Shown: positions 54,660-55,524 of the stretch, one piece after another | Layout: each line of letters begins with the position of its first letter | How positions within the stretch are numbered: position 1 is the stretch's first letter | Assembly (NCBI GenBank): GCA_029865265.1 | Contig: JAOUHG010000004.1 | Span: 1,621 to 65,620 of the forward strand | Direction of reading: 5' to 3' | DNA from: Candidatus Krumholzibacteriia bacterium | Lineage (GTDB): Bacteria; Krumholzibacteriota; Krumholzibacteriia; WVZY01; JAKEHA01 | Length of the DNA: 64,000 bases | Made by a program: the position numbers and the translations under genes | Notes under the pieces: model-generated | Databases searched by the model: none | Told to the model about the DNA's origin: nothing | What the model saw: the letters and a program-made list of their open reading frames with translations, nothing else

Positions 54660-54915
54660 CCCGCCTCTGCCCGGCCACCACGCATGGTGGCAGGGCCTCA
54701 CTATTAAAACTTTTGATAACGCCCGTTTAGGCGCAAAACTCATTTGTTTACTTTGGGTTGCTCCCCTTGGTGGCCATGGTATACAAATGTTTTTAATAGT
54801 CGCCTGTTTGGGGGGGATCACCCGGGCGTGTGTTGCGCCCGCGCGGACGTCGTTAACATGTTATTTGTTAACACGTTACGATCGTGTCGGAAGCCTGGGG
54901 AATAACGTGCCCGCT

Positions 54916-54930
54916 TGGCACACGGGTTGC
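54916..54930 (+). promoter_or_regulatory. Sigma54 promoter P1 (TGGCAC-N5-TTGC)
   Basis: An exact -24/-12 consensus, TGGCACacgggTTGC, with no ORF for ~580 nt downstream. Confidence 0.6.
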
Positions 54931-54940
54931 CTTAGCAATA

Positions 54941-55218
54941 CTTCGGAAGTCATCCCGTGCGTAAATGAACTTCCATCTGGTGGGGGACGGATTCTTGGGG
55001 AGCGCAAACTCCCCAAGAATCCCGAACTAAGGAAAAACTGAAGCGCTAAGGAGAGATTACTCTCGACCAAAGAATTCGGAGCCTTCGGGCTTCCGGGTTA
55101 GCCGATGCCCTGTATACGTTCCTAAGCAAGCTGCTGGCTTTGCGGAGTAAGTTGATTTCGAGAGGTGGGGTCTCGAACTTAACGAAGGAACGGATCGGGG
55201 CATCGGCGTTTTCTTTCC
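54941..55218 (+). ncRNA. Candidate sigma54-dependent non-coding transcript or long leader
   Basis: Runs from the predicted P1 start site to the U-rich tract after a long-range helix. It contains a 14-bp perfect hairpin (54989..55022) and a nested four-helix element (55101..55207). No credible ORF is present. Confidence 0.3.
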
Positions 55219-55444
55219 TGTCTCAGACCTTCCCGCCGCCCTGCCACGCACCCCAGGTTATCCCTGAAAGAGTGTCCTCTTCTCAGGTCAGTCGTGTAAC
55301 TCCCCGGGCACGAATCCAGGGCCGCAGCAACCCCTGAAACCGCCATTTCCGGCCTCCCTCGGGGCTCGGTCTGAAATTTTAACTGACTAGTCGACAATCG
55401 TTTACATGGCGTGCCGAGCCACCCCGGCAGGCTTTTCCCACCGC

Positions 55445-55459
55445 TGGCACATGGCTTGC
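55445..55459 (+). promoter_or_regulatory. Sigma54 promoter P2 (TGGCAC-N5-TTGC) for the FN3-lipoprotein operon
   Basis: An exact consensus, TGGCACatggcTTGC, lies ~65 nt upstream of the ATG at 55525. Confidence 0.7.
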
Positions 55460-55524
55460 GCTAGGGCCTGTTTGAGATGACGCACCACCTGAGCATAAGA
55501 AACCCAATTGACCGCGCCGTACGC

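Follow-up and report, generated by a model that had tools for sequence, protein, structure and literature searches.

A probable sigma-54-driven, structured RNA gene beside a TPR-type activator gene in Krumholzibacteriia

Introduction

Several proteobacterial activators of the sigma-54 holoenzyme have a small RNA (sRNA) as their output. In Vibrio, the NtrC-type sigma-54 activator LuxO acts mainly on sRNA genes, with one qrr gene adjoining luxO, and the Qrr sRNAs are about 100 nt long, depend on Hfq and act by base pairing through a long invariant seed. The glmY gene adjoins the operon of its activator, and GlmY functions, by virtue of its structure, as a protein decoy, while CrcZ, one of the CrcZ/CrcY/CrcX sRNAs of the Pseudomonadaceae, measures about 400 nt. 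Both glmY and glmZ have sigma-54 promoters (PMC3844500), and crcZ is a sigma-N-dependent transcription unit of its own downstream of cbrB, is conserved in synteny and receives some read-through from the promoter of the activator gene (PMC8871633). Here we describe a locus of related design in a 64,000-nt stretch of DNA (the window) from a Candidatus Krumholzibacteriia bacterium (assembly GCA_029865265.1, contig JAOUHG010000004.1, positions 1,621 to 65,620), where the spacer between a TPR-type sigma-54 activator gene and a lipoprotein operon holds two sigma-54 promoters, P1 and P2, and, probably, an independent, sigma-54-driven, activator-coupled gene for a structured RNA of about 275 nt (54942–55216) that starts at P1.

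The closest analogue in design is cbrA-cbrB-crcZ, in which the gene for a sigma-54 activator is likewise followed directly by that of a large sRNA with its own sigma-N promoter, activated by that activator. The two systems differ, however, in three respects: CrcZ has no sequence or Rfam similarity to the present RNA; it uses A-rich motifs that bind Hfq/Crc, whereas the present RNA carries G-rich invariant loops in a genome in which Hfq was not found; and CbrB is a two-component response regulator, whereas the activator here is a TPR protein. The GlmY/GlmZ system of Enterobacteria (GlrK-GlrR) shares the sigma-54 dependence of its sRNA genes, but these RNAs are smaller, their genes have overlapping sigma-70 promoters (not evident here) and no Rfam match was found here; the decoy role of GlmY is the model for our guess, taken up below, that the RNA has a protein partner. 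The Qrr sRNAs, for their part, are without similarity to the present RNA.

In size and domain complexity the present RNA stands nearer to OLE, raiA, HEARO, GOLLD and ROOL, lineage-restricted RNAs of several hundred nucleotides that were found by comparative genomics and are built of multiple covarying domains with invariant loop or junction nucleotides, although none of them matches it. Unlike these, it is preceded by a recognisable sigma-54 promoter and accompanied by an activator gene as constant partner, features that suggest a role in regulation and not in housekeeping. To our knowledge, the Krumholzibacteriota have no cultured members and nothing is known about RNA-based regulation in this phylum.

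Results and Discussion

The window contains two exact matches to TGGCAC-N5-TTGC, where shuffled sequences predict 0.15, and both lie on the + strand precisely where the original prediction had placed them (P1 at 54916–54930 and P2 at 55445–55459). On both strands of the 3.73-Mb genome there are 23 such sites (37 if TGGCAY is permitted), among which P1 alone lacks an open reading frame (ORF) of at least 80 aa starting within 400 nt downstream, in agreement with the earlier remark that P1 has no ORF to serve. P1 is nevertheless not an orphan, for what appears to be a structured RNA begins at its predicted start. The GG and GC dinucleotides of P1 and P2 are spaced one helical turn apart, as is characteristic of sigma-54 promoters, and the genome encodes rpoN (Sigma54_DBD match, E = 1e-65, contig C22). 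With the C of the −12 GC of P1 at 54930, transcription is predicted to start at about 54942, and the invariant sequence GGAAGUC starts at 54945. P1 reads TGGCAY-N5-YTGC in 40 of 40 loci examined, the N5 letters being free to vary, and its distance to the first invariant RNA block is constant at 32–33 nt.

The segment from about 54942 to 55222 folds with a minimum free energy z-score of −5.8, a stability equalled by 0 of 200 shuffles. A BLAST search with 54900–55230 against 40 relatives gave one homologue in each of 31, at 70–88% identity and in two families of one order, the RNA being single-copy per genome. When the query is lengthened, similarity sets in at 54914–54916 (P1), continues to about 55212, disappears and is back exactly at 55445 (P2). 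The comparative alignment of the spacer that had been proposed as a check on the original prediction yields two zones of conservation, one from P1 to a U-tract and one from P2 onward; the 228 nt from the RNA end to P2 are weakly conserved, except for an upstream block that keeps its position relative to P2.

The structure (Table 1) is based on RNAalifold applied to 20 sequences and on pair counting in a model-based alignment of 25 distinct sequences from families f1 and f2. In the latter, pairing is preserved in 98.4% of cells and compensatory changes affect 13 pairs, with a covariation score of 0.21 as against 0.116 for shuffled and at most 0.058 for slid alignments. Eight of the compensatory pairs fall in the 12-bp long-range stem that closes a three-way-junction domain and five in the 14-bp hairpin nearer the 5' end, while the extension of the closing stem covaries as judged by eye; elements like this domain turn up again in other families. 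The first ~45 nt of the RNA are near-invariant in f1/f2, with two alternative folds computed and a UCCC/GGGA pseudoknot being possible. The signature hairpin was compared across families in 27 distinct sequences selected for carrying GGUGGGG: within this set the loop and its closing pair, A-GGUGGGG-U, are unchanged, seven of eight stem pairs are compensatory, and the covariation score amounts to 0.58 (shuffled 0.22, slid at most 0.19). Two f3 loci outside this set have the loop UGUGGGG. The U-tract follows the closing stem in 25 of 25 distinct f1/f2 sequences. P1 had been offered two roles, that of driving a long structured leader and that of driving an independent non-coding RNA of about 280 nt; the second is the one favoured by a covarying RNA of about 275 nt that extends from the P1 start to a stem and U-tract.

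A covariance model, R1, built on f1 and f2 scores 95–295 bits in those two families and has no full-length match outside them, because R1 is too specific rather than because the RNA is absent. One weak 20-nt match drew attention to a third family, in its syntenic spacer, and divergent forms were traced via lipoprotein orthologues, a search for the signature-hairpin motif and 40 fetched upstream regions. A more divergent form of the RNA, which shares the signature hairpin, occurs in seven of the nine families sampled in the phylum. In f3, f5, f7, f8 and f9 the loci have the same architecture, in the order TPR-activator 3' end, sigma-54 promoter, ~170 nt, GGUGGGG hairpin, ~120 nt, GGCGAGA hairpin, closing stem and U-tract, P2, and lipoprotein gene. 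The RNA has an extra 3' domain in most other families, with a hairpin whose GGCGAGA loop is invariant while the stem below it covaries (for example UUGAA/UUCAA, GGA/UCC, CCCCG/CGGGG; loci L097, L098, L101, L108 and L122–L148); this domain is absent from f1/f2, and a search of the present genome for it returned coding-looking chance matches only.

Among 27 usable loci of f3, f5, f7, f8 and f9, 25 carry the RNA (including the two f3 loci with UGUGGGG), and all 23 of these that reach far enough upstream also show the 3' end of the TPR-activator gene, while the two loci without the RNA are missing the adjacent activator too. The RNA was not seen in the 13 loci without an adjacent activator. By family, it was not seen in f6 (0 of 7 loci) or most f4 loci, and it is in exactly those that no adjacent activator gene is present; in some f4 genomes the operon and a P2-like promoter are retained although no such RNA was seen there. 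The RNA gene thus travels with the activator gene and not with the operon. As a unit of its own, conserved beside the gene for an activator, it has the architecture of the activator-coupled sigma-54 sRNA genes.

Candidate regulatory sites were sought upstream of P1 by alignment of upstream regions, a regular-expression search for shared motifs having proved too strict. An AT-rich palindrome is present in 20 of 20 aligned f1/f2 upstream regions and is, at up to three mismatches, the sole such site in the 3.73-Mb genome; the 9-nt half-site CTATTAAAA/TTTTAATAG has exactly two genome copies, both upstream of P1. Such uniqueness is as expected for a regulator with a single target and suggests that the palindrome is the dedicated site of one activator, to which binding is presumed. 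The AT-rich repeat between these sites and P1 is possibly an IHF-like bending site, and a similar CAA-N4-TTR pattern occurs at a similar distance from P2. P2 is retained in most relatives, also in other families, and its own conserved block takes either of two set positions relative to it (~−171 or ~−147), while the distance of the block to the RNA end is variable. That the conserved upstream elements of P1 and P2 differ is compatible with one promoter per activator, as originally proposed.

From these elements the following course of events may be envisaged. The TPR activator would bind the AT-rich palindromic sites 150–230 nt upstream of P1, and bending of the intervening DNA would let it open the sigma-54 holoenzyme complex at P1, so that the RNA would be made only when the signal of the activator is present. 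P2, with its different upstream elements, would drive the operon for the lipoprotein, a DUF4384 protein and an inactive M6-like cargo protein of the type IX secretion system (T9SS) on a near-leaderless mRNA. The RNA itself would act in trans, offering invariant G-rich elements, namely the GGUGGGG loop and GGUGGGGGA in the 5' single strand, to a partner. The identity of this partner is the weakest step: we lean tentatively, at somewhat short of even confidence, toward a protein that is titrated or scaffolded by the RNA rather than toward the translation-start regions of mRNAs. The size of the RNA, its multi-domain architecture and the invariance of the pair that closes the loop all prompt this choice, as does the finding that gene starts lack C-rich sites complementary to it.

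Known RNA families and their usual protein partners were considered in this connection. Rfam 15 searched over 54000–56500 at E ≤ 10 returned two chance-level matches only, far below gathering thresholds, and four divergent homologous loci gave no match at E ≤ 1. A divergent 6S RNA, RNase P RNA, signal recognition particle RNA or tmRNA was rejected, as all four are present above cut-offs on other contigs. In the 96.7%-complete genome CsrA (PF02599), Hfq (PF17209) and ProQ (PF04352) were not found; a CsrB/RsmZ-type CsrA sponge was accordingly discarded despite several A(N)GGA motifs in the RNA, as was a CrcZ-type or Hfq/ProQ-dependent sRNA. The genome does encode five small RRM_1 proteins (open frames of 93–143 aa; contigs C34, C29, C60 with two copies, and C42), which may constitute an RRM-based RNA-chaperone repertoire as in Bacteroides.

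The alternative that survives best, though we think it unlikely, keeps the same transcription unit and makes its product a base-pairing sRNA, the G-rich single strands (GGUGGGG) of which seed on C-rich mRNA stretches with no chaperone of the Hfq type. Invariant single-stranded motifs are typical of seeds, the G-rich motif occurs twice in the f1/f2 form, sRNAs of other Hfq-less bacteria use loop seeds, and targets outside translation-start regions are conceivable. Against this, CCCCACC, the complement of the loop, is not enriched between −60 and +30 of ~2,450 crude ORF-based gene calls (37 occurrences vs 33 in the reversed control). Duplex energies of two G-rich segments, one of them not centred on the loop, with the seven genes of the locus produced no outlier; the TPR activator came out best, at the 1.8th percentile. 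The lipoprotein mRNA was rejected as a pairing target as well, since the partial complementary site varies among relatives while the RNA motif is constant. Finally, a conserved multi-domain RNA of 275–400 nt far exceeds the needs of a seed.

Much less probable still is that the P1 transcript is a cis-acting leader, an attenuator or riboswitch, in which the stem and U-tract decide read-through into the lipoprotein operon. Nearly all genomes do have the RNA upstream of the operon with both on one strand, and a three-way junction with a closing stem that doubles as terminator stem resembles an OFF-switch. A riboswitch or attenuation leader, however, has no promoter between RNA and gene, and here a conserved sigma-54 promoter that belongs to the operon intervenes together with its positioned block. 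The distance from RNA to P2 varies from ~160 to 460 nt across genomes, with the stretch unconserved outside the P2 block, and in the f4 genomes mentioned above both the operon and a P2-like promoter occur where no RNA was seen. In one relative (G018, L025:3387–5621) a convergent gene for a 744-aa multicopper oxidase with FlgD-Ig and T9SS sorting domains has come to lie between RNA and P2, with the RNA still joined to P1 and the activator gene. Because P2 has its own positioned block and because this gene splits the RNA from P2, the leader reading of P1 in the original prediction is practically ruled out. That the conserved block acts as DNA (an enhancer or architectural region for P2) or is a decayed protein gene, with P1 a non-productive sigma-54 site, is scarcely credible. 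Salmonella does have many sigma-54 binding sites that are intragenic or orphan (PMC3844500), and short ORFs overlap the region, but pairing-preserving compensatory double changes are a signature of RNA and not of DNA sites or coding sequence, the ORFs vary in length, frame and strand and suffer 1-nt indels, and conservation starts exactly at the promoter and predicted start.

Returning to the independent RNA gene, several points weigh against it as formulated here. The protein-partner idea is a conjecture, CsrA, Hfq and ProQ having been looked for and not found. The activator of P1 could be either of the two encoded at the locus, binding being predicted from sequence. The invariant 5' block yields no covariation by which to decide its fold, since nothing in it varies. 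The RNA end is not a classical compact terminator: a simple promoter/terminator scan, which is not designed for such elements, flagged neither the sigma-54 sites nor the long-range stem, the 'loop' of the latter being the whole domain. Lastly, the expression data are of limited reach. Metatranscriptome runs of 18 studies (estuary, sediment, soil) share words with the stretch, and contigs from four runs of four studies cover 54851–55192 as well as coding regions at both ends, with none over 55210–55520; these contigs, a weak hint of RNA expression, are of low depth and cannot show starts, ends or strand. One of them already begins 90 nt before the predicted start, which may be due to carried-over DNA or to transcripts reading through from the activator gene. 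A GC-rich hairpin (GCCACC-ACGCA-GGTGGC, 54660–54700) stands right behind the activator stop codon; as it is without a U-tract, transcription of the activator gene might conceivably continue into the RNA gene, as in cbrB-crcZ, and this could account for the contig starting at 54851.

The spacer that houses the RNA gene is AT-richer than its surroundings and gene-free, as originally described, with a G+C content of 0.553 over 54660–55476, where the window as a whole has 0.652 and the activator gene upstream has 0.658. Its extent, given before as ~800 bp, is now set at 817 nt (54660–55476), since the start of the following gene has moved to 55477. The spacer ORFs measure 52–84 aa only, and their protein similarity is confined to short fragments, which fall in several frames and on either strand. 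No small protein-coding gene was found in the spacer: the ORFs of relatives differ in frame, strand and length, the alignment contains 1-nt indels, and the search for a conserved protein gene in relatives' spacers, which would have told against the original prediction, came out empty. An ORF from UUG 55140 (55140–55337) has GGAG just ahead and is open in many relatives at 48–111 aa. It was rejected as a small-protein gene, as similarity stops at the RNA end and indels shift the frame, and it stays open because the RNA sequence is invariant and for no other reason.

In all f1/f2 loci the gene order is fixed as response-regulator activator, TPR activator, P1-RNA and P2-lipoprotein/DUF4384/T9SS-cargo operon, the response-regulator gene being counted in those loci that reach far enough upstream. 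Pfam domains agree with the earlier assignment of two sigma-54 activators just upstream of the spacer, whereas the GAF domain that had been ascribed to the TPR activator is not found by Pfam at E ≤ 0.001. P2 is conserved and does serve the lipoprotein operon, as had been proposed, but the start codon of the lipoprotein gene is ATG 55477, the conserved start, and not 55525, where most relatives have CTG. The P2 mRNA is thus near-leaderless, with ~6 nt between its predicted start (~55471) and the ATG, and no Shine-Dalgarno sequence is present (55471–55479). Lipoprotein orthologues exist in 145 of 151 genomes of the phylum, and the later genes of the operon encode a DUF4384 protein and then a T9SS-tailed FG-GAP/M6-like protein.

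Two further observations concern tandem promoters. In G114 (family f3) both sigma-54 promoters have the identical core GGCATGAAGGCTGC (L064:1339–1353 and 1914–1928), which suggests concerted evolution or co-regulation of RNA and operon in that lineage. Outside the window, the present genome (G000) has a second pair of exact sigma-54 matches 2 kb apart on the same strand and contig, C8:154243 and C8:156274, the former with just an 82-aa ORF behind it.

Table 1. Features of the locus in window coordinates, listed from 5' to 3'.
Feature	Position	Strand	Description and basis
Response-regulator type sigma-54 activator gene	49751..51136	+	Pfam receiver, AAA+ and HTH_8; NCBIfam NtrX/NtrC-like matches below cut-off
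TPR-type sigma-54 activator gene	51624..54659	+	1011 aa; Pfam TPR, Sigma54_activat, AAA_lid_14 and HTH_8; directly upstream of RNA gene
AT-rich palindrome	54702..54718	.	Consensus TATTAAAA-N-TTTTAATA; candidate activator site for P1, ~230 nt upstream of start
Second AT-rich element	54781..54799	.	Ends in half-site TTTTAATAG; conserved block in f1/f2 upstream alignment
Promoter-proximal AT-rich repeat	54853..54879	.	Between distal sites and P1; weakly conserved in f1/f2 alignment
P1, sigma-54 (-24/-12) promoter	54916..54930	+	Exact TGGCAC-N5-TTGC, TGGCACACGGGTTGC; predicted start ~54942
Structured non-coding RNA (predicted)	54942..55216	+	~275 nt; fold z-score, BLAST, covariance model R1, compensatory pairs
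5' block	54945..54987	+	Stem GGAAGU/ACUUCC with 18-nt loop, then single-stranded AUCUGGUGGGGGA; near-invariant in 25 distinct f1/f2 sequences
Hairpin	54989..55022	+	14 bp, 6-nt loop; five compensatory pairs, 100% of cells paired
Two variable hairpins	55050..55097	+	GGAGAG..CUCUC and UUCGGAGCC-UUCG-GGCUUCCGGG; recur in most relatives' single-sequence folds with differing sequences
Three-way-junction domain	55101..55207	+	Closing stem 55101-55112/55196-55207, extension 55117-55122/55187-55192, hairpins 55129-55139 and 55151-55183
Signature hairpin	55158..55176	+	UCGAGA-GGUGGGG-UCUCGA; apical part of hairpin 55151-55183; loop invariant in 27 sequences chosen for carrying it, stem covarying
U-tract, terminator-like end	55209..55216	+	UUUUCUUU; directly 3' of closing stem; BLAST similarity ends here
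Conserved block upstream of P2	55272..55317	.	GTGTCC-N8-GGTCA, TGTAAC, CACGAAUCC; candidate activator site for P2; 18 aligned regions
P2, sigma-54 promoter of lipoprotein operon	55445..55459	+	Exact match, TGGCACATGGCTTGC; predicted start ~55471
FN3-like lipoprotein gene	55477..56322	+	First gene of operon; start ATG/GVG-type conserved; faint Pfam fn3 match only
FG-GAP/T9SS-tailed protein	57539-60931		1130 aa; NCBIfam NF052323 'T9SS-dependent M6-like inactivated metalloprotease', E = 7e-56, below cut-off

A bolder view is that we are dealing with a new class of large multi-domain RNA (275–400 nt), conserved in most Krumholzibacteriia genomes examined, that does more than pair with mRNA, which we hold to be doubtful. 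One possibility within this view is that the invariant loops (GGUGGGG and, in most families, GGCGAGA) bind a protein or small ligand and feed back on the TPR activator; another is that the RNA organises a regulatory system based on RRM proteins.

Conclusions

In summary, the RNA would belong to the activator-coupled sigma-54 regulatory RNAs, a kind already known, although it may well prove to have a new biochemical role. It offers a new RNA family for the covariance-model annotation of metagenomes, and the fact that the usual RNA chaperones were not found raises the question of what its invariant loops bind. The locus amounts to a tractable module of an activator, a unique site, a sigma-54 promoter and a structured RNA, linked to a near-universal surface/T9SS-cargo operon, and would extend the design of a sigma-54 activator with a dedicated sRNA output from Proteobacteria to a distant lineage. 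A new class of RNA that binds a protein or ligand, or that is RRM-based, would, if true, be notable in a phylum in which Hfq, ProQ and CsrA were not found, and an RNA that senses a ligand or controls its own activator would represent a new regulatory mechanism.

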